In this document: piece after piece, positions 3,117 through 29,432 of the stretch
Position numbering within the stretch: the stretch's first letter is position 1
Layout: each line of letters opens with the position of its first letter
From: Deinococcales bacterium
GTDB taxonomy: Bacteria > Deinococcota > Deinococci > Deinococcales > JAAFIG01
Direction of reading: 5' to 3'
Length of the DNA stretch: 64,000 nucleotides
Assembly (NCBI GenBank): GCA_031414595.1
Contig: JANNVX010000064.1
Span: 9,283-73,282, forward strand
Made by a program: the position numbers and the translations under genes
The notes under the pieces: generated by a model
Database searches by the model: none
Seen by the model: the letters and a program-made list of their open reading frames with translations, nothing else
Told to the model about the DNA's origin: nothing

Positions 3117-4357
3117 TATATTGGGTGAACCAAGGAATTCGGCAAGCGTTCGGCGAGTTTCAGCACATTTTTAGGCTCGAGAACTCCTTTGAACCAAATA
3201 ATTTGATTGTTGTAGCGCTCGAGTTTTAGGGCGGTTTCTTTGCCTAAATTCAGGCGTTGTGAAACTGCCAAAATCAAATCTGGGCGCTCGGAGGCTTGAA
3301 TTTTTCGCAGTTTGCGTTCTAAATACTCGGCTCGCCAGTAGCCGATAATCTCAAGTAAAAGGCTGCGCCCGTCTGGGTGAACCAGCCTAAAATCTGGAAT
3401 CATGACTGTGCCGCCTAGGTCTACAATGTCTACTTCACGCTCGAGTTGCCAATCGGTTTGGGTAAGTGCAAAACGACTGGCAAAAGATTGCTCGAGCAAA
3501 CTGTCAAACATTTTTCCAGCGCTGTAATGTGATTTTAAGGTTGTGCTGTCGTTCAAAACGTATTCGGCTTCGTCCCTAGAACCATCGTAATGGCGCACTT
3601 GGATTTTACTTTGTAATGTCCATTTGGAAACATGCAGCAGGGCGGGTAAAAACTTGGCAAAAGCGATGCCATACCGTGTGCTGGGTTGAAATAAACTCGA
3701 AGGACCATCGAGCATAATGGTGTAGCCTGCATCTGGATCGCCGTTAATACGGTGCATTAAACCAAAGAGTTTTAGGTATTTGAACAACAGCTTGTACTGC
3801 CCGGGGTTGTTGCGGTGGGCTGTCACAAGCAATTCTGAGGCACGGTACAAGATACCTTGGGCTTGTGCAAGGTTATAGCGCGTCAGCAGCCATTCTGGAG
3901 TCGGGGCAGTAAAGGCAATAATTTGGGCTTCGCGCAAGTCGGCGTACAGGCTTTGTTCTAGGTTGACTCGAGTAATGGGTCTGGGTAAACCTGCGCTGAG
4001 TGTTGTTGCTACCATCTCGAGGGTTTGAGCGGCAGTGGCTAGGCTTGGGCGGTGCTTGGCTGCCATGGCAAAGACTTCGGCTCGAGCTACTGCGGGTTCA
4101 ATACTGCTTTGGGCGCTAAATTCACAACTTTCGGAGTACAACAAATGGGCTAACCCTCGGCGAACTCGGTAATCGGTGCTGTCGGCTGTATCCGCCTCGA
4201 GTGCTTCGTCTAGATCACGTCTTGAACGCCCATGATGCACTTCAAATAACAAAATAATGCCTCGAGCCAATTCGAGGTTATCGGCACTTAGCTCGAGGGC
4301 GTGGGGGGTAATAATGCCACCACGAAAAACATTGATTAAAAATTCGGTAGGTAGCAC
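3116..4357 (-). CDS. DUF790 family (Bax1-like) PD-(D/E)XK endonuclease
   Basis: YNLAQAQGILY, LDGPSSLF...RYG..FAKFLPALL and IPDF...LEIIGYW motifs. GTG start has CATAAT 6 nt upstream. Confidence 0.85.
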   Translation of the reverse strand: MLPTEFLINVFRGGIITPHALELSADNLELARGIILLFEVHHGRSRRDLDEALEADTADSTDYRVRRGLAHLLYSESCEFSAQSSIEPAVARAEVFAMAAKHRPSLATAAQTLEMVATTLSAGLPRPITRVNLEQSLYADLREAQIIAFTAPTPEWLLTRYNLAQAQGILYRASELLVTAHRNNPGQYKLLFKYLKLFGLMHRINGDPDAGYTIMLDGPSSLFQPSTRYGIAFAKFLPALLHVSKWTLQSKIQVRHYDGSRDEAEYVLNDSTTLKSHYSAGKMFDSLLEQSFASRFALTQTDWQLEREVDIVDLGGTVMIPDFRLVHPDGRSLLLEIIGYWRAEYLERKLRKIQASERPDLILAVSQRLNLGKETALKLERYNNQIIWFKGVLEPKNVLKLAERLPNSLVHPI

Positions 4358-4426
4358 AGGGCTATTATGCCAGAGAAACGAGGTTTTGATTTTAAGGGCG
4401 TTCTGTGTCTCGAGTCCGACAGCGCT

Positions 4427-4969
4427 CTATGTTTCGAGTCCAATGGCAAAAATTTCCGAGTCTCGAGTCAAAAGCTGTACCCTTGGCAATGGAAGTAACG
4501 CAGGACCAGAGACACTTTTGCCTGCCATTTCAGGGTCAAAAGCACTAAAATGACAAGCACACCCAAGCACTGGATGCTCAAATTCTGGACGGTACTTGTA
4601 TGCCATGGCAGTAATTTCTGGGTTTTTGATGTACTCAACGTTACAACGCAAATGCGTGCAATTTCTGGATAGGGCGATAAAGTGCTTGCCTGAAATACTA
4701 ATCCCACCAATTTGTGGTTTTTGTACCCGTACCAAAATAGCTGGAGTTGAACCGATTTTGAACTGCACCGCATCCCAGATTTTAGGTAAATCGGAGACTC
4801 GAGCCACTCGGACTTTAGGGGCTGCCACAAATTTGGGGGTGCTGCTTGGGGCAGGTTTACCGACTAAAATATTCCATGACCGAATGCCCAGCCAAGTAAA
4901 AAAACTCGCCACACCTGCAACAGGTGCGACCCACCAATACTCGAGGATTTTACGACGGGAAAGGGGCAT
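4427..4969 (-). CDS. Tat-exported Rieske 2Fe-2S protein
   Basis: SRRKIL twin-arginine motif; CTHLRC and CACHFS iron-sulfur boxes. ATG placed at 4969. Confidence 0.85.
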   Translation of the reverse strand: MPLSRRKILEYWWVAPVAGVASFFTWLGIRSWNILVGKPAPSSTPKFVAAPKVRVARVSDLPKIWDAVQFKIGSTPAILVRVQKPQIGGISISGKHFIALSRNCTHLRCNVEYIKNPEITAMAYKYRPEFEHPVLGCACHFSAFDPEMAGKSVSGPALLPLPRVQLLTRDSEIFAIGLET

Positions 4970-5014
4970 AGAGGCAAAAGGCGACAAGGCAAGGGCGAAG
5001 GGCAAAGGTAGAAG
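4970..5014. repeat. Intergenic heptamer tandem repeat (GGGCRAA-like)
   Basis: aggcaaa aggcgac aaggcaa gggcgaa gggcaaa ggtagaa. Confidence 0.65.
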
Positions 5015-5017
5015 TAT

Positions 5018-6160
5018 TCATGGTTTTAGACCAGTCACGAATTTGATGATATTTTCTAGGTCTTTTCCTTGGATGTTTTTGAAGGCTGGCATTTCTTGGT
5101 TGCTCGAGCCGTTGGCTAGTTGCTTTTTGAGGAAGTCTGGGCTTCTGGCTTTTGAGGAAGTTTTTAAGTTTGGTCCAACCAGTCCTTGGGCTTCTGCGCC
5201 GTGGCAGCCAGCGCAGCTTTGGGCAAACAGTTTTGCACCGGGGTCAGCTTCACGTAAACGTGTTTTAGCGGCGGCAATTAAGTCTGGAATTCGTGCGCCA
5301 AAGGCTTTATCCTTATTGACTTTTAGAAATTGTTCCCATGCAGCAATTGCCCCTTTAGGGTCGTTTTTAGCGCTAAAACGAATGTTGCCAATCGTTAGCC
5401 ACGCTTCGGCATTACCGAGTTTTGCGGCGGTCTCGAGTAAGGTCAGGGCTTGGTCGTAATCGCCATTAAAAAAAAGAATCTGTCCGTAACGTGATAAAGC
5501 ATGGATATTTTCTTGGCTCGGTTTGGTTGGTTGGTTCTTTTTGGCTGTGTCGGTGAATTGTCTTAAAGCTGCTCCGTAGCCTTTGGCTGCATCTTCAAAA
5601 CGGTCTAACTCCCATGCCACATCGCCGTATTTCATCAGGGTCTCGAGTGAAAATTCTAAGCGCCTAGCTTCGGGTAGGGTTTCGTTTTTCTTAGAGGTCT
5701 GGTTCAGTTCTGCCGCCAGTTTAAGGAGTTCTTTTTGATTGGCGTAAAGCTCACGTTCGACTGGTCTAAGGGCTAAATTCTCGAGGGCTGGAACTGCGAA
5801 GGCACTTAAACCCCCGAGTAGTACAGCCGTTAAGGTAAATAATAAGATGCCACCACGTAAACTGGCTCGAGATGGATTTTTAACTGGTGTTTCTGCTGTG
5901 GCTTCGATGACTTGCAAAATTTTAGCGGCTCGAGTTTCGTCACGCAAGCGAAAACGTTCATAATCTTGGGTGTTGATTTCGCTCTGCTCTTGTTGTCGTT
6001 CAAGTTCTCGAATCTGGGCGTACACAGCGTTTAATTCTTCCTCGAGTTCATCTTTTTTGGTTTTTACACGAATCTGTGCCGAATTACCGCGCAAAGGCAG
6101 TAGTGCAAAAACAGCCAGTAAAACAGCCACCAAGCCGAGCAAAACAAACCACGGAATCAT
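5018..6160 (-). CDS. ccmI: CcmI/CycH-like TPR protein fused to a C-terminal c-type cytochrome
   Basis: N-terminal TM helix and coiled coil, second TM helix, TPR helices, C-terminal CAGCH heme motif and EMPAF distal Met. Confidence 0.75.
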   Translation of the reverse strand: MIPWFVLLGLVAVLLAVFALLPLRGNSAQIRVKTKKDELEEELNAVYAQIRELERQQEQSEINTQDYERFRLRDETRAAKILQVIEATAETPVKNPSRASLRGGILLFTLTAVLLGGLSAFAVPALENLALRPVERELYANQKELLKLAAELNQTSKKNETLPEARRLEFSLETLMKYGDVAWELDRFEDAAKGYGAALRQFTDTAKKNQPTKPSQENIHALSRYGQILFFNGDYDQALTLLETAAKLGNAEAWLTIGNIRFSAKNDPKGAIAAWEQFLKVNKDKAFGARIPDLIAAAKTRLREADPGAKLFAQSCAGCHGAEAQGLVGPNLKTSSKARSPDFLKKQLANGSSNQEMPAFKNIQGKDLENIIKFVTGLKP

Positions 6161-6645
6161 AGGTGGGTACTTGCCCCGCTTCCTGCCACATGCCCCGCAC
6201 TATCATGGCTGCGGTCACGTTGCGCCTCGAGTTGCCTACGCACTTGCTCGAGTGCGGCGGGGTTGACTTCTTCGGGGTTTTGATGGCTTGAGCGCTTTAA
6301 GTAATTCCACAACACAGCCCCACCAATCAACAAGACCAAAACTGGCAAAATCCATACCAACATATTCACCCCTTGAAACGGTGGTTTAAGCAGCACCGTA
6401 CTGCCATACTTCCCTGAAAAATAGGCTTTGATTTCGCTTTCAGATTTTCCTGCTTTGACCTGAGATTTGACTTCGGCAAGCATACTGCGGGCAAAATCTG
6501 ATGGACTTTCGGTGATGGCAGAGCCACCACAGACAGGGCAACGCAATTCATTGCCGATTAAACGTGCTTTATTCTCGAGTTCTAAATCGGTTTGTGCCAA
6601 GGAAATCGAGAGGAAAGAGAAAAGTAGAAAAAAAAGAAATTTCAT
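6157..6645 (-). CDS. ccmH: Cytochrome c biogenesis protein CcmH
   Basis: LRCPVC, YG..VLLKPP and W.LP motifs. Confidence 0.92.
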   Translation of the reverse strand: MKFLFFLLFSFLSISLAQTDLELENKARLIGNELRCPVCGGSAITESPSDFARSMLAEVKSQVKAGKSESEIKAYFSGKYGSTVLLKPPFQGVNMLVWILPVLVLLIGGAVLWNYLKRSSHQNPEEVNPAALEQVRRQLEAQRDRSHDSAGHVAGSGASTHL

Positions 6646-7184
6646 TCGACCCCCAGCAGTTTTAAGCCAGCCTCGAGTTCAGCGCGTTCGATTGGCTTAG
6701 GGTAATGTTTTTTTACCACACCATTGGAGTCAATAAAAAAGGTTTCTGGAACACCAAAAAGCGCATATTTGACACTGGTACGCCCAGCATCGCTCGAGTC
6801 ATCCATCATAATAGGAAAACCAAGGTCAAACTGATTGGCAAATTCACGGGCTTTGTCTTCTTTGTCATTATAAGCAATACCCAAGAAAATTACGCCTTTT
6901 TTGCTGTATTCAATTGCTGCCCTCGAGAACATTGGAGCTTCGTCTTTACACGGCACACACCAAGAAGCAAAGAAATTTAAGACCACGGGTTTACCCTTAA
7001 ACTGCTCGAGTTGAATGCGCCCACCGTTAATCAAGGTCAGGTCAAAACTTGGTGCGGGTTTTCCCTCGAGCGCGGCAGTGCTTTTGTTACCCGGCTGCGT
7101 CGGTGTGAGCAAACCACCAAGCAGCACTGCCAAAACAGCGACAATCACTGCGCCAATAATAATGTTCCGAACGGCTGTGTTCAC
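6642..7184 (-). CDS. ccmG: Thiol-disulfide oxidoreductase CcmG/TlpA
   Basis: FFASWCVPC and GVPETFFID; N-terminal TM helix; located in the ccm cluster. Confidence 0.88.
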   Translation of the reverse strand: MNTAVRNIIIGAVIVAVLAVLLGGLLTPTQPGNKSTAALEGKPAPSFDLTLINGGRIQLEQFKGKPVVLNFFASWCVPCKDEAPMFSRAAIEYSKKGVIFLGIAYNDKEDKAREFANQFDLGFPIMMDDSSDAGRTSVKYALFGVPETFFIDSNGVVKKHYPKPIERAELEAGLKLLGVE

Positions 7185-7196
7185 ATTTTCTCCTAC

Positions 7197-9158
7197 TTAA
7201 TCAGCAGCGACCATTTCGCTTTGTTTCCTCAAAGTTTGCACCTGTACGGCTGGGATTAGGGTTAAACCCGCACCAATCACAATAATTAAGCCACCGAACC
7301 AAATCCAAGAGACCAAAGGGCTGTTAATAAATTTTAGGGCAACTTGGCTGCCTTTTTCGTCAGCCGATAAGAAAATCACATAGAAATCGCCTAGGAAGTT
7401 GTACTGCACGGCGGGCGTAGCCACGTTCATCTGTTGGGTTTTGTACTGGTTTTGGGCTGGAAAAAAACTCTGACCATCCAAGAGAATTTCGGCAGCATTG
7501 ACAAAGCGGTCTGGCTGTTCTTCGCCAGCCAATCGCAAATAGGTGATGTCATGCCCAAGGACGGTCTTGTTCTCGCCGATTTTGAAGCTGACTTCTTGTT
7601 CGGTTTTGTACGCACCACTAAAAGCAATACCAAGCGCAATCACGACCACACCAAGATGAGCAATGTACGCGCCGTAACGACGCGGAAAGGCGTTCACAAG
7701 GTCGCCAATCGCGGCTAACCACGATTGCCCAATGGCTTTTTGGCGGCTGCGAATGGCTTTGTCGGTCAGGCGCACCATCACAAAAATGTTAAAGAACGCC
7801 AAACCAACGGTTAGCACCACCGACCACTCTCGAGCGCCCAGAATAAACGCAATCACTGCCATAAAAAGCGCCAGAATTGCGGGGATGGTCAGACTTTCGC
7901 GTAGGCTTTCGCCAGTGGCGCGTCGCCAACCTAGGGCGGGTCCAACGGCTTGGAGTGCCAAAATACCCAGTCCGAGCGGCACACCAACCGCATTAAAAAA
8001 CGGTGGTCCAACCGAAGATTTTGCACCTGTGAAGGCTTCAACAAAGACTGGAAATAATGTACCGATTAAAACCATCGCGGCGTAACTCGAGAAAAGTAAA
8101 TTCCCAAATAAAAACGCCCCTTCTCGAGACACGGGACTGTCCAATTGGTGTTCATCACGGATTAAATGCAGTTTTTGATAGCCAATGCCAAGCGTTAAAA
8201 CCAGCACAATCACCAAGAACCCAAAGAACACTGGTCCGATTGCTCCAGCCGCGAACGCATGAACACTCTGGACAATACCGCTACGGGTTAAAAATGTTCC
8301 AAGCAGCGTGCTGGTGAATGCCGCCACAATCAAACCCATATTCCAGCCAACCAGCATTCGGCGGCGTTCTTGAATTTGCAGGCTATGAATAAAGGCTGTG
8401 GCAAAAAACCACGGAATGACGCTGGCGTTCTCCACAGGATCCCATGCCCAGTAGCCACCCCAGCCTAGCACTTCGTAACTCCACCAACCACCAGAGATAA
8501 TCGCAGCGCTTAAAAATATCCATGCGGTGGTTGTCCAACGCCGTGTTTGCACCAACCACGCCTCACCGACCCGACCTGTTAAAAGGGCAGCCATGGCGTA
8601 AGCAAACGGTACGGTCAAACCAACAAAACCAATGTACATCAGAACCGGATGCACCGCCATCATCCAATGGTTTTGCAGCAGTGCATTTGGACCGCGACCA
8701 TCTTGCGGTGGAATTGGCACTTCAATAAATGGGCTGCCGACACTGGCATTGACCCCCAGAAAAAACGCCAGCACAAAAAACATGATTGCCAAGGCATATG
8801 GACGAAGCGCATCAGGTTTTGCGACCCATGCCAGCACCGCCGTAAAGACCGCTAGAATCCACGCCCAAAGCAGTAAACTGCCCTCGAGCGCTCCCCATAA
8901 GCTGACAATTTTGACCCACAATGGACTGGTACTGACACTGTGGTTTGCCACATAACGCACCGAAGTATCGTTGGTTAAAAGCGCCACCCACAAAATCGCC
9001 AAGCCAGCACTCGAGAATAAAAGGGTAATCCCCGCCGTGCGCCGTGCTGTTAGCTCGAGACGTGCATCTAAGGTTGTGGCTGCTCGCCACGCAGTAATTA
9101 ACCCAAAAACACAGAAGACAAGGGCAGTTAAAACCGTAATTTCACCAATCCAACTCAT
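7197..9158 (-). CDS. ccmF: Heme lyase CcmF
   Basis: WGALEGSLLLW, LLQNHWMMAVHP and WSYEVLGWGGYWAWDPVEN (WWD domain). Confidence 0.97.
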   Translation of the reverse strand: MSWIGEITVLTALVFCVFGLITAWRAATTLDARLELTARRTAGITLLFSSAGLAILWVALLTNDTSVRYVANHSVSTSPLWVKIVSLWGALEGSLLLWAWILAVFTAVLAWVAKPDALRPYALAIMFFVLAFFLGVNASVGSPFIEVPIPPQDGRGPNALLQNHWMMAVHPVLMYIGFVGLTVPFAYAMAALLTGRVGEAWLVQTRRWTTTAWIFLSAAIISGGWWSYEVLGWGGYWAWDPVENASVIPWFFATAFIHSLQIQERRRMLVGWNMGLIVAAFTSTLLGTFLTRSGIVQSVHAFAAGAIGPVFFGFLVIVLVLTLGIGYQKLHLIRDEHQLDSPVSREGAFLFGNLLFSSYAAMVLIGTLFPVFVEAFTGAKSSVGPPFFNAVGVPLGLGILALQAVGPALGWRRATGESLRESLTIPAILALFMAVIAFILGAREWSVVLTVGLAFFNIFVMVRLTDKAIRSRQKAIGQSWLAAIGDLVNAFPRRYGAYIAHLGVVVIALGIAFSGAYKTEQEVSFKIGENKTVLGHDITYLRLAGEEQPDRFVNAAEILLDGQSFFPAQNQYKTQQMNVATPAVQYNFLGDFYVIFLSADEKGSQVALKFINSPLVSWIWFGGLIIVIGAGLTLIPAVQVQTLRKQSEMVAAD

Positions 9159-19002: not shown

Positions 19003-20198
19003 AGCCCCTCGAGCAGTACCTTTCTCGAGCCACACGCGGGCTTTACGGCGCTAAAAAACTCGAGATACAAGCCGAACTTCGCGGCAGTATTGAAGCGCGA
19101 ATCTGGCAACTCGAGAGACAAGGTAACGCCAACGCCCTCGAGACGGCGCTTAGTGAAATGGGTGAAGCCAAAACAATCAATGCTGGTCTTTTTAAGGAGC
19201 ATCTCATGCCAATTATTTCCAAAGCAGTATTTGTAATTATTGCCGCTACAGCCCTGACCATCACCACACTCTCGAGTAGCCAAGCCCAAGTTGGATGGGC
19301 AACAGCGCAAGATGAATACCTCAAAAATTCTGGTTTTCACGATATTTTTGTCAACATCAGCGACTTAAAATCCTCCTTTGAAAAAGCAGGGGCAGTTGTG
19401 ACTGAAAATATGGCTGAGCCAAAAAAATACACCTATAGCGGCTTAATGTTCTCCATATCACCAAGACTCAATTGGGATGAAACATTGCCAGTCCGAACAT
19501 TAGATATTCAGTTGCCAAATTCTGAGCAAAAAATTCAACTTCAAGCCCTCGCTAAATTCAGTTTGAACTCCGAAGAAAAAATTGCCACCACACCAGAGGA
19601 AGCCGCCTTTATTTCTTACAATTACATGATTGACCAATTCAAAGCCACAAAATTGCCTGTTCGTTTTGAAGGTTGGCAAACACCAAAAATTCAAGTTGGT
19701 GATTTTTCTTTCACTTTAGAAAAAACAGGTAGCTCGCCTCGACCCGAAATGCAATACCTTCAAATTTTTTTCAAATGGTGGCTTTTGGATGGTGATAGAC
19801 CAGGCATACGCAACCGACTGAATGCCAGACTTTCTACTTCTGGTTTATCAAGCGACGCTTACCGCCATGCCATACGCACTAATGACCCAGCCAATACAGT
19901 CTATACCATTGTCAGCAGCGAAGGCGGATTTCGCTCGGCGGCTGGTGTAACCGAAGCACAAACCACCCTCACCTTGGCTCGAACCAATGCCCAAGGGATT
20001 CTCGAGTTCACTGCACCATACAGAATTCTACAATTCGGAAAGAATCCTTTGCTCGAGAAAAATGTACCAAGCGTTGCAGGTACAGAAAAAAATCCCGCCC
20101 AAGCACTTTTGCTTAAGTTCACAGGGCGTTTAGATGCTGCTGCAAAACCCGTAGAAATTGTCTTGCCCAGCAAAACAAAAATTGCTGCCCTCAAATAA
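18999..20198 (+). CDS. PadR-associated membrane protein (permease-prefix/HAAS-like N-terminus, one TM helix, external domain)
   Basis: LEQYLSRATRGL...EIQAELRGSIE...ALSEMG N-terminus; coupled to padR. Confidence 0.75.
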   Translation: MKPLEQYLSRATRGLYGAKKLEIQAELRGSIEARIWQLERQGNANALETALSEMGEAKTINAGLFKEHLMPIISKAVFVIIAATALTITTLSSSQAQVGWATAQDEYLKNSGFHDIFVNISDLKSSFEKAGAVVTENMAEPKKYTYSGLMFSISPRLNWDETLPVRTLDIQLPNSEQKIQLQALAKFSLNSEEKIATTPEEAAFISYNYMIDQFKATKLPVRFEGWQTPKIQVGDFSFTLEKTGSSPRPEMQYLQIFFKWWLLDGDRPGIRNRLNARLSTSGLSSDAYRHAIRTNDPANTVYTIVSSEGGFRSAAGVTEAQTTLTLARTNAQGILEFTAPYRILQFGKNPLLEKNVPSVAGTEKNPAQALLLKFTGRLDAAAKPVEIVLPSKTKIAALK

Positions 20199-20225
20199 AC
20201 CTTGGCTCGAGTTTAATCGCTCGAG
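20178..20225 (+). repeat. 48-bp direct repeat, left copy
   Basis: aaaattgctgccctcaaataaaccttggctcgagtttaatcgctcgag; 47/48 identical to 20944-20991. Confidence 0.92.
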
Positions 20226-20317
20226 TCACACGCGATTTGTGTGGTGCTAAAAACTTGAAGTACAAGCCAATCTCGAGTTTGGCACGCAGATACAGAATTC
20301 TCGAGTTTGGTCAGGAT

Positions 20318-20593
20318 TCAAGCGGCTTTTCGCCTTTTGTATGATTTTTTCCCGTAGGCATCGCCACGCTTTTCGATTAAATAAACATCAATCACCGAAT
20401 CTGACATCGTGAACTCAGCACGATAACCACCAACCCGAAGCCGATAACAACCACGCGAACCCGAGATGGGTTTAACATCACCACTTCCAGTTTCAGATAA
20501 AATTGCAAAAGCCAGTAAAATCGCTTCGTTGAATCGAGCATCCAAAGAGCGCATGTCTTTAATTGCGGAAGCACGAAACTCGAGTTTTTTCAC
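20318..20593 (-). CDS. relE: RelE/ParE family toxin
   Basis: LEFRASAIKDM, GDVKPISG and YRLRVGGYR. Confidence 0.88.
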   Translation of the reverse strand: MKKLEFRASAIKDMRSLDARFNEAILLAFAILSETGSGDVKPISGSRGCYRLRVGGYRAEFTMSDSVIDVYLIEKRGDAYGKKSYKRRKAA

Positions 20594-20847
20594 ACTAAAC
20601 CTAGGGCTTTACGGGTTTGTGCCAAACTATAACGTTTATCCGACTGAGAAGACTTTAGACGCGCCTTAGAACGACGTAAAGCAGTGGGGGACAAAACTTC
20701 GGCATCGGTTTTCAAAGCAGTTACTTTCTTTTTATCAACAACTTTTTGCAATGCTAAATCTAGGGCACCGCGTAAAGTAATTTGGTGTTCACGACGAAGC
20801 AGTTCAAGGGTTTCAAATTGGGCATTGGTTACTTCAATGGTTTTCAT
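20590..20847 (-). CDS. Cognate antitoxin of the RelE toxin
   Basis: 85 aa from ATG 20847 (TACACT 6 nt upstream); ends RYSLAQTRKALGLV, overlapping the relE start. Confidence 0.75.
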   Translation of the reverse strand: MKTIEVTNAQFETLELLRREHQITLRGALDLALQKVVDKKKVTALKTDAEVLSPTALRRSKARLKSSQSDKRYSLAQTRKALGLV

Positions 20848-20943
20848 GTCTCGAGTGTACAGATATGAAGTGTTTATTTCAACTTTGCCACCCGTTGGCA
20901 CACACCCACGCTGAGCAACCCGTTTTTTGGTCTTTGTCTTACC

Positions 20944-21003
20944 AAAATTGCAGCCCTCAAATAAACCTTGGCTCGAGTTTAATCGCTCGAGCCAAGGTTT
21001 ATT
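20944..21003. terminator. Right copy of the direct repeat, completing an 18-bp perfect hairpin
   Basis: aataaaccttggctcgag-tttaatcg-ctcgagccaaggtttatt (20960-21003). Confidence 0.85.
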
Positions 21004-21121
21004 AATGCCGGTTCGCACCATTGCCTGACTTCAAGGCTAATCGGCAATCACAGCAAAAGAATTTTTCACACCCGTAGTTTGCCTCGAGTACCGCAAAAAG
21101 TCTTTGACCTAGGTCAAAATC

Positions 21122-23988: not shown

Positions 23989-24065
23989 GCGCCCGTAGCT
24001 CAGTCGGATAGAGCAAAGCACTCCTAACGCTTAGGTCATCCGTTCAATTCGGATCGGGCGCACCA
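23989..24065 (+). tRNA. tRNA-Arg(CCT)
   Basis: GCGCCCG/CGGGCGC acceptor stem, GCTC/GAGC D stem, anticodon loop CT-CCT-AA, T-loop TTCAATT, encoded CCA; 77 nt. Confidence 0.95.
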
Positions 24066-24172
24066 CTATTTTACTCGAATCTAAAGAATGAACGGTAGAT
24101 TTTGTAAGCTGATGCTCGAGAACTTCTTGCCATGTCATAAGCACCTCTTTAGGTTTATTGTGCGTTGAATTT

Positions 24173-24220
24173 TTCGGGGATGCCAGCAAAATACTGGCTG
24201 TCGTTAATCCAGACCTTTTG
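24173..24220 (-). pseudogene. Remnant copy of the R-M enzyme C-terminal region
   Basis: 42/48 nt identical to 26228-26275; encodes QKVWINDSQYFAGIPE versus QKVWINDTQYFAGIPE. Confidence 0.85.
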
Positions 24221-24371
24221 GGTACAAATTTTAACTGCTTAAGTTTAGTCAACCAAACCGCATAACGCAAATGGTAACGTAAAGAGTAACGCAATCCGGT
24301 TTAGTGCATATAGCGCAACAGACATATTAAACCGACTTGAGTAACGTAAAAGTAGCGCAAAAGTAACGTAA

Positions 24372-26057
24372 TTATTTCTGGACTGTTCGGTAGATTGCCT
24401 TATTGCGTATCCCCACCATTTCGAGTTTACCTTGTTTGACTAAACGCCTCAGTAAATAAGAGGCTTGGTCTTCAGAAAGCGTCGTGAAGAGTCGCATAAC
24501 ATCAGCTCTGGTAATTTCCGATTTGGCTTTCAGTAAACTAGAGACCATGATTTCCTGTTCGGTGGCAACCAATCCACGTTGTCGAACATAGGCTTCTGGC
24601 TTACCCAATTGCTCATAAACAGCAGCACTTAAATGATAGGTTTTGGGGCGCTTAAAGCCCCGAGCCTCGAGCAACCCAAGCTCGAGAAGCCGATTCAGTA
24701 GCATTGTAGCATGAGTCACATTATTTTCTAAGAGTTGAGTGGCTTGGTTTGTATTGATGTCACCCTCGAGAGCAACTTGATGCAAAATCAGGAGAGTAGC
24801 CCAGTCCAAGGGTTTACCAAGACGGTTTTGGACTTCGAGCCAGATATAAACCAATTTAAGGTCAGCTTCACCGCCAGAAAAAGAGAGCTTGACTGTTTGC
24901 CGATTTGTGCCAAAGTAACTTGGGGCAGCCCTGCCTGTACGAAGAATACTCTCAAAAATTCGCTCTACCCCTCGGGCGGTGCGTTCAACTAAACCAAGGC
25001 GCTTAAAAATATCTGCCAGCATTGGATTACGAGGACGTGGCTCGGTACTGATGATATTTTCTAAAGTTACGCCTTCGACAAAACCGCCCGGACTCGAAAT
25101 ACTTAGGGCATCATTCTCGAGGATGCGAACATAAACCGCTTGCCGTAGACTGTAATCCCTGTGAACAAGTGCATTGGCAAGGCTTTCGCGCACGGCTTCT
25201 TTGGGGTAAAGCGGTATGCCAATGCGTTGTAAGCCCCAATCGAGTTCTTGTTCACGGTTACGCACCAAAATATACTGCTCGAGGCTTTGCAAGAGTTTAA
25301 GCAGAGGTTCACGAAAAAACTGATTGACTTCAACAGCCTGTTCCGCGCCTAAGACCTGAAAAGCTGCCTCATGACTTGGAACGAATTCTTGCAAGGCTCT
25401 TTGTTTGCCCACAAGTAATAAACCCGCCAAAGTTGGGCGCACCACACCATCAACTGTTTTTACTAAACCCAAGGCTTTGGCTTGTTCAAGATGCCCTAAA
25501 TCACGCAAACTAGGGTCGCTATTGGGGTTATCTTGCAATAACTGATTTAGGCGTTCAAATTCGAGTGGGTCAAGTTCGTCCCAAGTGGTATTCGACAGAA
25601 TTTCTGCACTGTGGTCATATTGGGTCAGTTGTGACAAACGGCTTGGCATTTGGTCTGGATAGAACGGAATACACTCTGGGCGATTATGGACATCCAGACT
25701 ACGGCGCATGGTTTTCCCATCGGTTGTGCTGATCACCCGTTTGGCTTGTGGCACATCAATCACATCCACAAAAACATTGCCAACAGCAACTCGAGTTGCT
25801 CTAACGCCAGCACTTGGGCGGGTACGATTATTGATACTTGCCTCGAGCCTTGGCGAAGTCATCTCGAGATGTTTTTGATGAACACCCGTTATCTGACCGT
25901 TATCTTCAACTCCAACCAGCAAAGTACCACCATCTGCATTGGCTAAACACACCACAGCTTCAAATAAATCGTTAGCTGAAATAGGCGCATCGCGCTTAAA
26001 CTCGAGGGTCATGGATTCGCCGTGGGCTATCAATTTAAGCAATTCTGATTCGGTCAT
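24372..26057 (-). CDS. Schlafen/AlbA_2 + HATPase_c_4 + winged-helix protein
   Basis: GESMTLEFK, AVVCLANADGGTLLVGVED, AVRESLANALVHRDY, ISSPGG and GLVERTARGV. ATG 26057 overlaps the R-M stop (ATGA). Confidence 0.88.
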   Translation of the reverse strand: MTESELLKLIAHGESMTLEFKRDAPISANDLFEAVVCLANADGGTLLVGVEDNGQITGVHQKHLEMTSPRLEASINNRTRPSAGVRATRVAVGNVFVDVIDVPQAKRVISTTDGKTMRRSLDVHNRPECIPFYPDQMPSRLSQLTQYDHSAEILSNTTWDELDPLEFERLNQLLQDNPNSDPSLRDLGHLEQAKALGLVKTVDGVVRPTLAGLLLVGKQRALQEFVPSHEAAFQVLGAEQAVEVNQFFREPLLKLLQSLEQYILVRNREQELDWGLQRIGIPLYPKEAVRESLANALVHRDYSLRQAVYVRILENDALSISSPGGFVEGVTLENIISTEPRPRNPMLADIFKRLGLVERTARGVERIFESILRTGRAAPSYFGTNRQTVKLSFSGGEADLKLVYIWLEVQNRLGKPLDWATLLILHQVALEGDINTNQATQLLENNVTHATMLLNRLLELGLLEARGFKRPKTYHLSAAVYEQLGKPEAYVRQRGLVATEQEIMVSSLLKAKSEITRADVMRLFTTLSEDQASYLLRRLVKQGKLEMVGIRNKAIYRTVQK

Positions 26058-29000
26058 GCCGCCCCCAGCACCAAATCTATACCTTCCATTAGCCCTTGTG
26101 TTTGCTCGAGGGCAGCCGCCACTTGGCAATAATGGTTTATATCATCAAAGCTCAGTTCGCGTCCTTTGCGGTCTTTAAGCCACTTCTCGAGAACTTGATA
26201 GCCACCAATTCGGGTTTGCCAAAGCTGTTCGGGGATGCCAGCAAAATACTGAGTATCGTTTATCCAAACTTTTTGAGCAGCGTACCGTGGTTTATCCACC
26301 ACATTTAAGCCAGCTTGTGGAAAAGTTACACTGGTCTCGAGTTCGGTGGTCATTAAATGAAGCCCTGATAATTCACGTCCCAAACGCACCAGAGCAACAA
26401 AGGCACTTAAATCTGTGGGCAGTGGAATACGAGGGAAATCTATTTTTAAGAATTCGGCATAACGGCTACGGTATTTGGGGCTGTGCAGAACCGCATAGAT
26501 ATAATGCAGCACATCTTCGGGAGCAAAATTCTGGATTAAATCGCCTAAGCCATCGGGCAGCCACTCGAGACCAAGAATTTGTCCAAGCGCCGCAATAAAT
26601 TTGGGCGAAAGATTGGCTTTGCGCCTCTCTGCCTCGAGTGCCAAGCCTTCGGTATTTGGGTAGAGATAAAGCGGAAAAATTTGTACACCACCACGCATAA
26701 AAACATTTTGGTCTATCGGACTTTTCGAGATTTGAACAAGCGACCAAACAGGGTCATTGACAGCCATTCCTTGGCGACCAATACCAAGACAAAGATTATC
26801 TTGATGAACTACATGTTGTAAAAGTTCACGCCTTGGGCGATCCATCAAAAGATTACTGAAATAACACCACCGTGTATCAAATGGGCGATAGTGGCATTTA
26901 ACAATCGGGGACTGCCAATTTTCATCTTTTCTCAAGGCTGCTCGAGTTGCCTGTAACGTCCAATTACCGCCATTCTTAATCTCATATTGTTGACGCAAAA
27001 CATCATCGCTTTGACTCGAGTCTCGTAAATTCTCAATTCGTTCTTCTATTTCGGATTTATCAAAAGCAATCGCAAAGTTATCACGGTGCGTCTTAAAACC
27101 ATTGGCACTGATTGAAAAAATATCTGGGATACCCCAAAATTCTTGATATTCGACTTGTGCATTTATATCTTGAGGAGAGAACAAATAAAATGGGCTGGCG
27201 GGAAAAATTTCTGTCCATTGGGTGCTTTGTAGGTCGTTTTCCTCGAGCCAAAAGTATTTACCGCCTGTCAATTTGGCATTCTCAGCTTTTCCCTCAAAAA
27301 TCTCGCGTAGACCCCATAAATTGGCATGGTAAACCCGTTTTCCTAGCTCGAGTGGCGGTTTTTTGTTGGGTGGCAATTTGATAAAAAAACCAATTGCCAC
27401 ACCCTGCATAATGTCAAACACATTTTCGTCTTTGCTACCATCTGGGGATGTTTCTTTTTTACGGCTGTTGCCGTGTAAATCCAGAAAATACAATTCGTCA
27501 AAACTGTTTAACAGCGCTTGGCGCATTCCTCTAAAGGTTGGGTTGTCCAAATACCCGTGGTTGGTCACAAATGCCAAAATTCCCGCACCAGTTTTGTCTA
27601 TGCGCCACTGCGAAAAGCGAATAAATTTCACGTAATCATCGTTTAAGTATTTTGAGTTGGCTTCGCCTAGTGGCATTCCATCTATTTCAAAATAATTCGT
27701 GCCAGTCTGGTTATTTAGCGTATCCAAGCCATGCAGCAAGTTGTGAATCCAGTCGCCAGTATTGGCGCTGTGTCCACTGTACGGCGGGTTGCCAAGTACG
27801 ACCATCACGGGGGTATCGCGCTTGATGCTGCTGGCAGCCAAAGATTCTTGTTGTAGCGCGGCGGCAAAAGGCTGGAAGGCTTGGTCCACGCCTCGCGGTT
27901 GCTCGAGCGTGTTGGTCAAAAAAATTCGTACCCGTTCGTCTTTTTGTAGCTTATAACCAGTTCTCGAGAGTAAAAAATCGAGTTTTAAGTGTGCCAAGGT
28001 GTACGGTGCAATTAAGAATTCAAAACCATGCACTCGAGGCAGAATATGGTCTTTGACGTAGCCATTCCACATGCCTTGGTTGTTGCTAAAACCCGCGTAA
28101 ATATGGTTAATCACCCGATGCAAAAAAGTGCCAGTGCCAGTGGCGGGGTCTAGCACTTGGACTTTATGCACGCCGTCTGCGGTTTTACTGGGGTCGGCAA
28201 GCCCGCGCTTTAGGTCAAAACGGGTTTTCAGGATGTTATCTACACTCCGCACGATGTAGCCCACCACGGGTTCTGGGGTGTAATAAACACCGCGTTTTTC
28301 TCGCATGGCTTTGTCGTAAGCCGCTAAAAAAGTTTCGTAAAAATGCAGTACCGGGTCGCCTGCGCCAGTGGTTTTGCCAAGTTCGGTTTTGATGCTTTCC
28401 ATATTGGCACTGTCCAAAACCATTGCGGCTTCCTCGAGCGCCCAAACAAAATCTGGGTGGGCTTCTGCCCCGCCAAAGTAACTAAAAATCTGGGTCAGAA
28501 CCGCATTGCCTCGAATGCCAAGCAAAGGTGTGGCACGGCTAAAGGTGCGCTCCTTAAAATCTGGGGCAAACTGACTAAGTTCACCTAAACTGGTATCGGG
28601 TTCGTCTTGTTGGATTCGGGTCGCAAATAAGCCGTAGGTAAGGGTTTGGGCGTACAAGTCGGCAAATTCTTCTCGGGTTAGTTCGGCAACCAAAATGGTT
28701 TTGACACTTAAAAATTGTTCGGTCAGGGGTTTTTTTAGGAGTTTTAATTCTTCACGCAGCACCCGCCGAATCACCACACGGATTTGCTGAGCGTAATAGG
28801 CTAAACGCATAGCCAGTTCTCTGGCGCTGCCGGCGGCTGGGGTTGGATTCTGGACAAAGGCTTGCAGCAAACTGCTTAGTTCTTCTTCGGCATTGGCTCT
28901 TGGGGTAATGGTTTTCTCAACTAAATCGGCAAGCCGTACAGTGCGGCGCAACTTGCCACGCACATACCACCTGAACTCGAGGTAATCGGATAAAATCAGG

Positions 29001-29284
29001 TTGCCAAGGGCATTGGTGTAACGCTGCCACTGGTCGGTTTTTAAGACCTTATCGAGGTTTACAGCAAGGTCTTTAACCTCGAGATGCCCGACATCCAAGC
29101 TGCCTTTGGAAATAATAAAATCAGGTGCGCCGTAAACTTTTCGTTTGGCTTCGTTGGTGGCTTTATAGCCAGTTAATACCGCCTCGAGTAAATCTTGTAA
29201 GTACGGGCGGTAGGTGTGTTCGGTGGCATCGGCTCGAGCGTAGGCTCGTTTAATCTGGCTTAGGTACTCTGCGATTTCGGACAT
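26054..29284 (-). CDS. Single-chain type IIG/ISP-like restriction-modification enzyme (nuclease, N6-adenine MTase, Type_ISP_C-like TRD)
   Basis: ATEHTYR, PDF...HLEVK nuclease motif, LDPATGTGTF (motif I), GNPPY (motif IV), YRPFD, DFPRIP and IGGYQVLEKWLKDRK. TAGACT lies 5 nt before ATG 29284. Confidence 0.9.
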   Translation of the reverse strand: MSEIAEYLSQIKRAYARADATEHTYRPYLQDLLEAVLTGYKATNEAKRKVYGAPDFIISKGSLDVGHLEVKDLAVNLDKVLKTDQWQRYTNALGNLILSDYLEFRWYVRGKLRRTVRLADLVEKTITPRANAEEELSSLLQAFVQNPTPAAGSARELAMRLAYYAQQIRVVIRRVLREELKLLKKPLTEQFLSVKTILVAELTREEFADLYAQTLTYGLFATRIQQDEPDTSLGELSQFAPDFKERTFSRATPLLGIRGNAVLTQIFSYFGGAEAHPDFVWALEEAAMVLDSANMESIKTELGKTTGAGDPVLHFYETFLAAYDKAMREKRGVYYTPEPVVGYIVRSVDNILKTRFDLKRGLADPSKTADGVHKVQVLDPATGTGTFLHRVINHIYAGFSNNQGMWNGYVKDHILPRVHGFEFLIAPYTLAHLKLDFLLSRTGYKLQKDERVRIFLTNTLEQPRGVDQAFQPFAAALQQESLAASSIKRDTPVMVVLGNPPYSGHSANTGDWIHNLLHGLDTLNNQTGTNYFEIDGMPLGEANSKYLNDDYVKFIRFSQWRIDKTGAGILAFVTNHGYLDNPTFRGMRQALLNSFDELYFLDLHGNSRKKETSPDGSKDENVFDIMQGVAIGFFIKLPPNKKPPLELGKRVYHANLWGLREIFEGKAENAKLTGGKYFWLEENDLQSTQWTEIFPASPFYLFSPQDINAQVEYQEFWGIPDIFSISANGFKTHRDNFAIAFDKSEIEERIENLRDSSQSDDVLRQQYEIKNGGNWTLQATRAALRKDENWQSPIVKCHYRPFDTRWCYFSNLLMDRPRRELLQHVVHQDNLCLGIGRQGMAVNDPVWSLVQISKSPIDQNVFMRGGVQIFPLYLYPNTEGLALEAERRKANLSPKFIAALGQILGLEWLPDGLGDLIQNFAPEDVLHYIYAVLHSPKYRSRYAEFLKIDFPRIPLPTDLSAFVALVRLGRELSGLHLMTTELETSVTFPQAGLNVVDKPRYAAQKVWINDTQYFAGIPEQLWQTRIGGYQVLEKWLKDRKGRELSFDDINHYCQVAAALEQTQGLMEGIDLVLGAA

Positions 29285-29432
29285 AGAGCAGTCTACCAAA
29301 AGCACTTGGGGCTTTGGCTTCTTCCTTTTATATTGCTGCGTATTCTCTGGGCTGCCGAGGCTCGAGCCGATAAAACCCAAGAACCCTTGTAGCCCACAAA
29401 TACGGTGCTGTGACGCTTCATGGGTATCTGAC

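Follow-up and report, generated by a model that had tools for sequence, protein, structure and literature searches.

Two long open reading frames (ORFs) occupy positions 24372-29284 on the minus strand of the 64,000-nucleotide stretch of Deinococcales DNA analysed here (contig JANNVX010000064.1; hereafter the window, from genome G000). The upstream gene, A, encodes a single-chain restriction-modification (R-M) enzyme, and the downstream gene, B, a Schlafen protein with an ATPase domain and DNA-binding winged helices. A first-pass annotation of the sequence had read the two as a candidate defence system. Comparison with relative genomes (G003, G004, G005, G016 and G024) and with census loci collected for each gene points instead to a chance neighbour pair, probably not a dedicated two-gene system, in which both members are probably anti-phage genes of known kinds. 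The locus comprises the following features (aa, amino acids; nt, nucleotides):

26054-29284, minus strand: gene A, type IIG/IIL restriction-modification enzyme, 1076 aa (ATG at 29284, TGA at 26056-26054)
24372-26057, minus strand: gene B, Schlafen (AlbA_2) domain, GHKL ATPase (HATPase_c_4) and two tandem winged helices, 561 aa (ATG at 26057-26055)
26054-26057, minus strand: ATGA overlap of the A stop and the B start, read from the sequence as a site of translational coupling
23989-24065, plus strand: tRNA-Arg(CCT), called by ARAGORN and Rfam, convergent with B and 306 nt from the B stop
29290-29298, minus strand: TGGTAGACT, an extended -10-like motif found by direct reading and a possible promoter from which A and B could be transcribed without a leader

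The A/B junction reads GCG GCA TGA ACC. The start codon of B is made up of the last A of GCA plus TG, with three bases common to ATG and TGA. Upstream of the pair, TGGTAGACT ends 5 nt 5' of the A start codon and no Shine-Dalgarno sequence is present there, making a leaderless A-B transcript from this motif plausible. We found no promoter of its own for B, which is therefore probably co-transcribed and translationally coupled with A. The neighbours of A in the window are a metallophosphoesterase-like gene and gene B. The first-pass coordinates of the pair and its ATGA overlap proved exact, and the pair does converge on a tRNA gene, which lies on the strand opposite to B. Both genes also belong, as had been proposed, to defence-type families, and their domain and motif matches are those of intact enzymes.

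Gene A has the nuclease, methyltransferase (MTase) and target-recognition make-up first attributed to it. Pfam identifies N6_Mtase and a full-length Type_ISP_C specificity domain (residues 721-1067, E 1e-88), and the suggested PADLOC check returns REase_MTase_IIG (PDLC03610) at 881 bits. In an alignment of A with 25 relatives (41-85% identical), D55, E69 and K71 of the PD...ExK nuclease (P54-D55...E69-V-K71) are invariant, as are D379-P-A-x-G-T of MTase motif I (D379-P-A-T-G-T-G in A) and N499-P-P-Y502 of motif IV; the MTase is of the gamma class of N6-adenine enzymes. All three domains reside in one chain, and no separate S or M subunit gene adjoins it. Judged by these motifs, A appears to be a complete and autonomous type IIG/IIL enzyme that needs no partner. 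Acting alone, such an enzyme would methylate its own recognition site and cut unmethylated DNA.

The nearest solved structures to A are the MTase-specificity parts of LlaBIII and LlaGI (type ISP) and DrdV (type IIL, 7LO5). With DrdV and the MmeI-like type IIL/IIG enzymes, A shares a PD-ExK amino terminus, a gamma-class N6-adenine MTase (NPPY), a carboxy-terminal specificity domain and a size of ~1000-1100 aa, matching DrdV over the MTase region (E 5e-43). It departs from them in its specificity domain, which is of the Type_ISP_C family and best matches LlaBIII and LlaGI. The homology to LlaBIII (4XQK) and LlaGI (5FFJ) covers the MTase plus Type_ISP_C module (A 308-980 against LlaBIII 841-1460, E 4e-44), but A has neither their superfamily 2 (SF2) helicase-like motor nor their Mrr-type nuclease, and is 1076 aa long against 1578 aa. 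No helicase family matches A, and the LlaBIII alignment begins only at LlaBIII residue 841; lacking a helicase motor, A is therefore not a type ISP enzyme. The earlier label of type IIG/ISP-like thus holds for the type IIG/IIL assignment and for the ISP-type specificity domain, and fails for the enzyme type. Compared with its G005 orthologue, A is a mosaic, ~91% identical in the 5' part that encodes nuclease and MTase (27819-29310) and ~96% in the 3' specificity part (26075-27379), against 95-98% in the flanks; this hints at recombination inside the gene.

Gene B is likewise intact. Pfam identifies SLFN_AlbA_2 (residues 14-119) and HATPase_c_4 (PF13749; 315-384, E 2.7e-15). The winged helices of the first-pass annotation are borne out by the AlphaFold model (predicted local distance difference test (pLDDT) 89), which has two in tandem (400-476 and 478-558) that match MarR-type regulators. 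They are not borne out by the Pfam scan, which calls none in B itself, although B orthologues do match HTH_24/MarR_2. The model matches DIP2311 (3LMM) over its full length, and human and rat Schlafens over the N-domain (7PPJ, 5YD0 and 7ZEP). The Schlafen catalytic motif is intact: E14, E19, F20 and K21 of the Ex4ExK motif (E14-SMTL-E19-F-K21) are invariant in 33 orthologues. The N-box of the ATPase is equally constant in this set at E291 and N295. In the E51-D52 pair (GVEDNG), E51 is at least 90% conserved and D52 aligns with the aspartate of the SLFN GVDD motif. The orthologue profile (GESxTxEFK and GGxLLxGVEDxG) aligns with the catalytic stretch of SLFN13 (SESASIEFK) and SLFN14 (TESTHVEFK).

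This domain order places B in the pSlfn HisKinase-HTH (helix-turn-helix) or 'Schlatpase'-HTH class (COG2865). The HisKinase-HTH type makes up 19.2% of prokaryotic Schlafens (Taboada et al., PMC13056530), and the 'Schlatpase' supradomain with a C-terminal HTH is found in 60,692 proteins (Kuzmenko et al., bioRxiv 10.64898/2026.05.29.728809). Like other members, DIP2311 (3LMM) included, B has the three-part architecture, the Ex4ExK motif and the PF13749 GHKL domain; like them, too, it lies in the kind of setting (R-M, BREX and defence islands) that includes 'Cluster 7' of PMC13462974. Links of ATPase-bearing, DNA-binding Schlafens to restriction, BREX and CRISPR loci are already on record (PMC13462974, clusters 1, 2 and 7; bioRxiv 10.64898/2026.05.29.728809, Fig. 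1f). In characterised relatives the Schlafen domain cleaves tRNA and the proteins act as RNases (PMC13056530; bioRxiv 10.64898/2026.05.29.728809), and by analogy the likeliest role for B is that of a latent tRNA/RNA nuclease gated by ATP and DNA binding. The characterised versions are only the Argonaute-fused, Csx15-fused, Ig-like and DUF262 forms; two genes of the stand-alone HisKinase type, to which B belongs, were assayed in Escherichia coli and gave no phage protection (PMC13056530).

In close relatives the two genes are not found as a pair. In G005, whose flanks are ~95-96% identical to those of the window, A lies beside the same tRNA-Arg, and 58 nt replace the 1.9 kb (24173-26074) that hold B, its downstream repeat array and a duplicate of the A tail. 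The G003 orthologue of A (85%) lies beside tRNA-Lys(CTT), followed by a PemK/MazF pair, with no B. In G016 an A orthologue (74%) is followed by a convergent dehydrogenase, and a B orthologue (46%) is found on another contig, behind alaS. G024 has a B orthologue (47%) inside a helicase/DUF1156-methylase/DUF499 (Hma-like) system. Wider censuses give the same answer from both sides. No A-like gene occurs among 80 B-orthologue loci, drawn from 80 contigs of different organisms in many phyla (the B gene itself was called in 76). Conversely, we collected 80 metagenomic loci with full-length A relatives, and none of the 53 with at least 1.7 kb of downstream flank has a B-like gene downstream of A; one locus in this census has a distant Schlatpase upstream of the A relative.

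Absence of the pair elsewhere is one of the outcomes that the first-pass annotation had named beforehand as refuting its two-gene system, and on this count the idea is, for this specific pair, largely refuted. A dedicated system would take the form of a specific A-B complex in which A masks B or B controls the expression or activity of A, and it would sit well with the ATGA overlap, the probable co-transcription and the same arrangement assembled independently from the same sample. Set against A without B in G005, G003 and G016, the zero counts in either direction (0/80 and 0/53), the lack of a B-type repeat motif upstream of A and the presence in A of every motif of an autonomous enzyme, these points leave a dedicated system, and with it a specific A-B partnership, very improbable. 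The genes 3' of A relatives are heterogeneous (AAA_21, GmrSD, NACHT, ORF6N and housekeeping genes), and from such neighbourhoods the position behind this type IIG enzyme would seem to be a general cargo site. The slot right behind A relatives is often filled by a tightly spaced, co-oriented gene (AAA_21, GmrSD, NACHT, ORF6N, DUF2971 or RhuM).

B-type genes, for their part, keep varied company. Among 62 upstream neighbours of B orthologues we count type I MTases (6-8), SNF2 helicases of the HmaA/DrmD (Hma/DISARM) type (6), BrxC/DUF6079 (4), HsdS (3), Eco57I-type enzymes (2) and GmrSD (2), the rest being diverse. Spacing was scored at the 61 loci that have an upstream gene and whose start codon could be placed; in 51 of them that gene is co-oriented. 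The gap to the co-oriented gene is at most 20 nt in 25 of these 51, and an exact 4-nt overlap occurs in 9. As such overlaps recur behind varied genes, the ATGA overlap at the A/B junction is a habit of the family whatever lies upstream.

The window genome itself holds three B paralogues. One (L228, G000:C48:1-11046, minus strand) splits a type III mod-res pair: mod (N6_N4_Mtase) at 7204-9156, the Schlafen gene at 5807-7207 with a 4-nt overlap to mod, and res (ResIII) at 3202-5751. A second (L227, G000:C101:12000-27000, minus strand, 6879-8537) is followed after 9 nt by a HEC-02-type pair (5841-6869 and 5273-5854), an AAA_15/AAA_21 ATPase with a small partner as identified by PADLOC. The third adjoins an aldehyde dehydrogenase. 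The nearest homologue of B anywhere (61%, same sample, L212) faces a tRNA gene and stands behind a type II unit made up of a Dam-type MTase, a C protein and a restriction endonuclease. Directly upstream of it (L212 2930-3400) is a 156-aa C-terminal fragment of a different type IIG/DrmMI-type MTase (PADLOC E 6e-26), which suggests that moving cassettes drag along tails of former host genes. From these neighbourhoods, the link of B to A appears generic: the class seems to insert behind many MTase-bearing defence genes, with no specific partnership.

The first-pass annotation had also proposed a PrrC-like logic, which stands as a family-level analogy. Like the PrrC and RloC anticodon nucleases, B would be a latent tRNA-directed nuclease in or beside a restriction locus (type I for PrrC and RloC) with a second-line defence logic. 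What does not stand is conserved co-occurrence with a cognate enzyme: PrrC, of an unrelated fold (an ABC-ATPase with its own anticodon nuclease domain), has EcoprrI as its one cognate enzyme, while genes of the B type are found behind many unrelated systems. A looser version has B as a second-line abortive tRNase that monitors R-M in general, backing A without needing A specifically, its cues being, for example, the DNA ends that cleavage leaves, phage proteins that counter restriction or a loss of methylation. The enrichment of B orthologues directly behind MTase-bearing defence genes, their frequent tight coupling to the upstream gene and the intact Ex4ExK motif are all consistent with such a guard, and PMC13462974 speculates that such homologues may sense structures arising from DNA cleavage. 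However, around half of the genes found upstream cannot be recognised as defence genes (for example alaS in G016, and ribosomal protein L31 and an aldehyde dehydrogenase beside two of the G000 paralogues), the partners are mechanistically unrelated systems, and the failed protection assays cited above concern this very type. We consider a generic guard unlikely, while granting it some weight. To our knowledge, no masking or trigger has been described for B.

Immediately behind B lies a repeat array:

24262-24371, minus strand: seven co-oriented TTRCGYTAY units, running from the first base after the B stop onward

Three units recur at period 11 (24341-24371), one stands alone (24310-24318) and three recur at period 12 (24262-24294). 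The 64-kb window holds 9 copies of TTRCGYTAY, 7 of them in the array, and none of 100 shuffles reaches 9. Across the 4.49 Mb of the genome the paired pattern of the array has one other match, which falls in the D-arm of a tRNA-Gln gene and which we treat as coincidence.

Repeats at this position are common in the family, where orthologues have arrays of their own. The 61% homologue has TTTACGATAAG three times after its stop (L212 5108-5140), and the type III paralogue has TTTCCGTCTC three times just below 5807 in L228, ending ~20 nt before the res ATG. After the L227 paralogue no array is visible. Most of the 76 called orthologues have, within ~30 nt of the stop, 2-3 copies of their own 10-12-bp repeat or 18-20-bp palindrome. 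In the first 70 nt past the stop, an 8-mer that recurs exactly in either direct or inverted orientation is present in 54/76 orthologues against 48/360 controls (other genes of at least 200 aa from the same loci), an enrichment whose Fisher p-value is overstated because the B orthologues are related. The post-stop motif differs between orthologues. Array similarity correlates weakly with that of the protein (Spearman 0.21 over the C-terminus, 0.14 over the N-terminus); shared descent confounds this correlation, which we do not take as proof of docking. Among the papers searched we found none that describes a post-stop repeat array. The array is likely a docking site for the winged helices of B.

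Other roles for this region were considered. The stretch between B and the tRNA shows no sign of RNA structure (fold z = 0.32, Rfam matches to the tRNA only), and on these grounds we rejected a structured RNA or riboswitch. An integron attC-like site was also rejected: the units do not fit GTTRRRY/RYYYAAC cores, and no terminator-like hairpin follows B. Upstream of A the TTRCGYTAY motif is absent, which makes control of A transcription by B through this motif unlikely. The first-pass annotation had raised regulation of A by B as an alternative, and its form acting through the A promoter was discarded for the same absence.

On another reading B would chiefly be a regulator that binds DNA, or a selfish passenger, with the Schlafen and GHKL domains as sensor and the winged helices on the array controlling downstream read-through. 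The operon-embedded copies are suggestive here, the array lying between the B-type gene and the next start codon (the type III paralogue and res), and the double winged helix resembles MarR-type repressors; the missing terminator after B fits as well. However, that the residues of Ex4ExK and of the GHKL N-box do not vary implies that enzymatic activity is under selection, and the characterised relatives are RNases (PMC13056530; bioRxiv 10.64898/2026.05.29.728809). Moreover, nothing co-oriented lies downstream of B in the window, where on this account the cassette would be stranded with nothing to regulate. We judge such a role improbable.

Beyond the array, the sequence returns to gene A:

24167-24280, minus strand: decayed duplicate of A codons ~987-1021 (QKVWINDSQYFAGIPE..., with stop codons), its core a 48-nt repeat at 24173-24220
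26228-26275, minus strand: functional partner copy of the 48-nt direct repeat, inside A, 88% identical to 24173-24220

The repeat pair brackets the last 57 codons of A, all of B and the array. G005 has no B, no array and no tail duplicate, and carries at the site 58 unrelated nt and an altered A tail. The A-tail duplicate beyond the array is best read, on this comparison, as an insertion scar. The arrangement recalls 'insertion with long target duplication' (Furuta, Abe & Kobayashi 2010, PMC2853133), in which, as here, direct repeats that copy part of a neighbouring gene flank the inserted unit, with no recombinase gene in it and with a close relative that is without the unit. It differs from that model (PMC2853133) in the diverged repeats and in the 58 unrelated nt and changed A tail of G005, which therefore records no clean insertion or excision. 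A second case of long target duplication is seen elsewhere in the window, a 54-nt direct repeat (94% identical, 20175-20228 and 20941-20994) around a toxin-antitoxin pair (small ORFs at 20318-21021). We rejected the distal segment 24066-24172 as an old type IIG remnant: the protein-level match ends at ~24167, and a further 21-nt match contains the hyper-abundant CTCGAG. This hexamer recurs in many repeat matches between 23900 and 29500 of the window.

The tRNA gene had been put forward as an integration site. The site is indeed a variable slot, since the content after tRNA-Arg differs among species of the genus. Integration at the tRNA itself finds no support: no integrase is encoded among the window ORFs, and the 21-nt tRNA 3' end is unique in the window with 3 mismatches allowed. 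We therefore rejected an island integrated at the tRNA. In G003 and G004, tRNA-Arg(CCT) is present in two copies 240-350 nt apart (L031, G003:C79; L039, G004:C136); these doubled genes may be scars of earlier events at the slot.

The explanation that we prefer, at a rough probability of 0.65, is that A and B are two independent defence-type modules, physically joined, with B linked to A generically and not specifically. B would be a self-contained Schlatpase-HTH cassette, an ORF with its own post-stop array, that recombined in at the A stop codon and left the A-tail duplicate behind. By analogy with characterised Schlafens we infer for it an RNase activity with a role in defence. B would be expressed by co-transcription with the host gene and gated by ATP-driven oligomerisation of the GHKL domain, and the pair of winged helices would bind the TTRCGYTAY array beside their own gene.

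Four points weigh against this explanation. The A tail of the window (IDLVLGAA*) resembles that of G003 (IDVVLGV*) more than that of G005 (IDDV*) does; as the G005 tail looks derived, B may have been lost in G005 and not gained in G000, and the pair may be older than we suppose. A 4-nt overlap is normally a sign of functional coupling. The strong enrichment of the class beside modification-based systems may reflect some functional dependence on such systems in general. Finally, because both genes tested in E. coli were unprotective, the defence role of the HisKinase-type architecture is unproven.

A more detailed scheme, which we offer as speculation with the odds well against it, would make B a recombinase-free 'plug-in' cassette. 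The array would tether and silence B, and its displacement would lead to ATP-driven oligomerisation and tRNA cleavage; the cassette would spread at stop codons of MTase-bearing defence genes, together with pieces of their tails. What displaces B from the array could be cleavage products of the neighbouring restriction enzyme, a nuclease or DNA mimic of phage origin, or altered methylation of the array.

As a two-gene defence system, then, the locus is neither new nor a conserved unit, and the link of the Schlafen class to R-M loci is already published. Its interest lies in being a clean natural example of how the commonest bacterial Schlafen architecture, still to be characterised, comes to be part of a restriction locus, complete with a sister-genome presence/absence pair, an exact junction at a stop codon and an insertion scar. 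Published work on Schlafens does not settle how they are activated. A compact unit of A, B and a 110-bp array bears on how stand-alone Schlafen-ATPase-HTH proteins are activated, and on whether the repeats that accompany each gene are recognised by the DNA-binding tails of these proteins. Elsewhere in G000, one region (L214, G000:C56:1498-4518) packs 20 tRNA genes into 3 kb on one strand, with unusually short tRNA-Leu genes (76-78 nt). It has the appearance of a tRNA array from a phage or mobile element, or of a 'tRNA array unit', and may be relevant given the four Schlafen-type genes of this genome.

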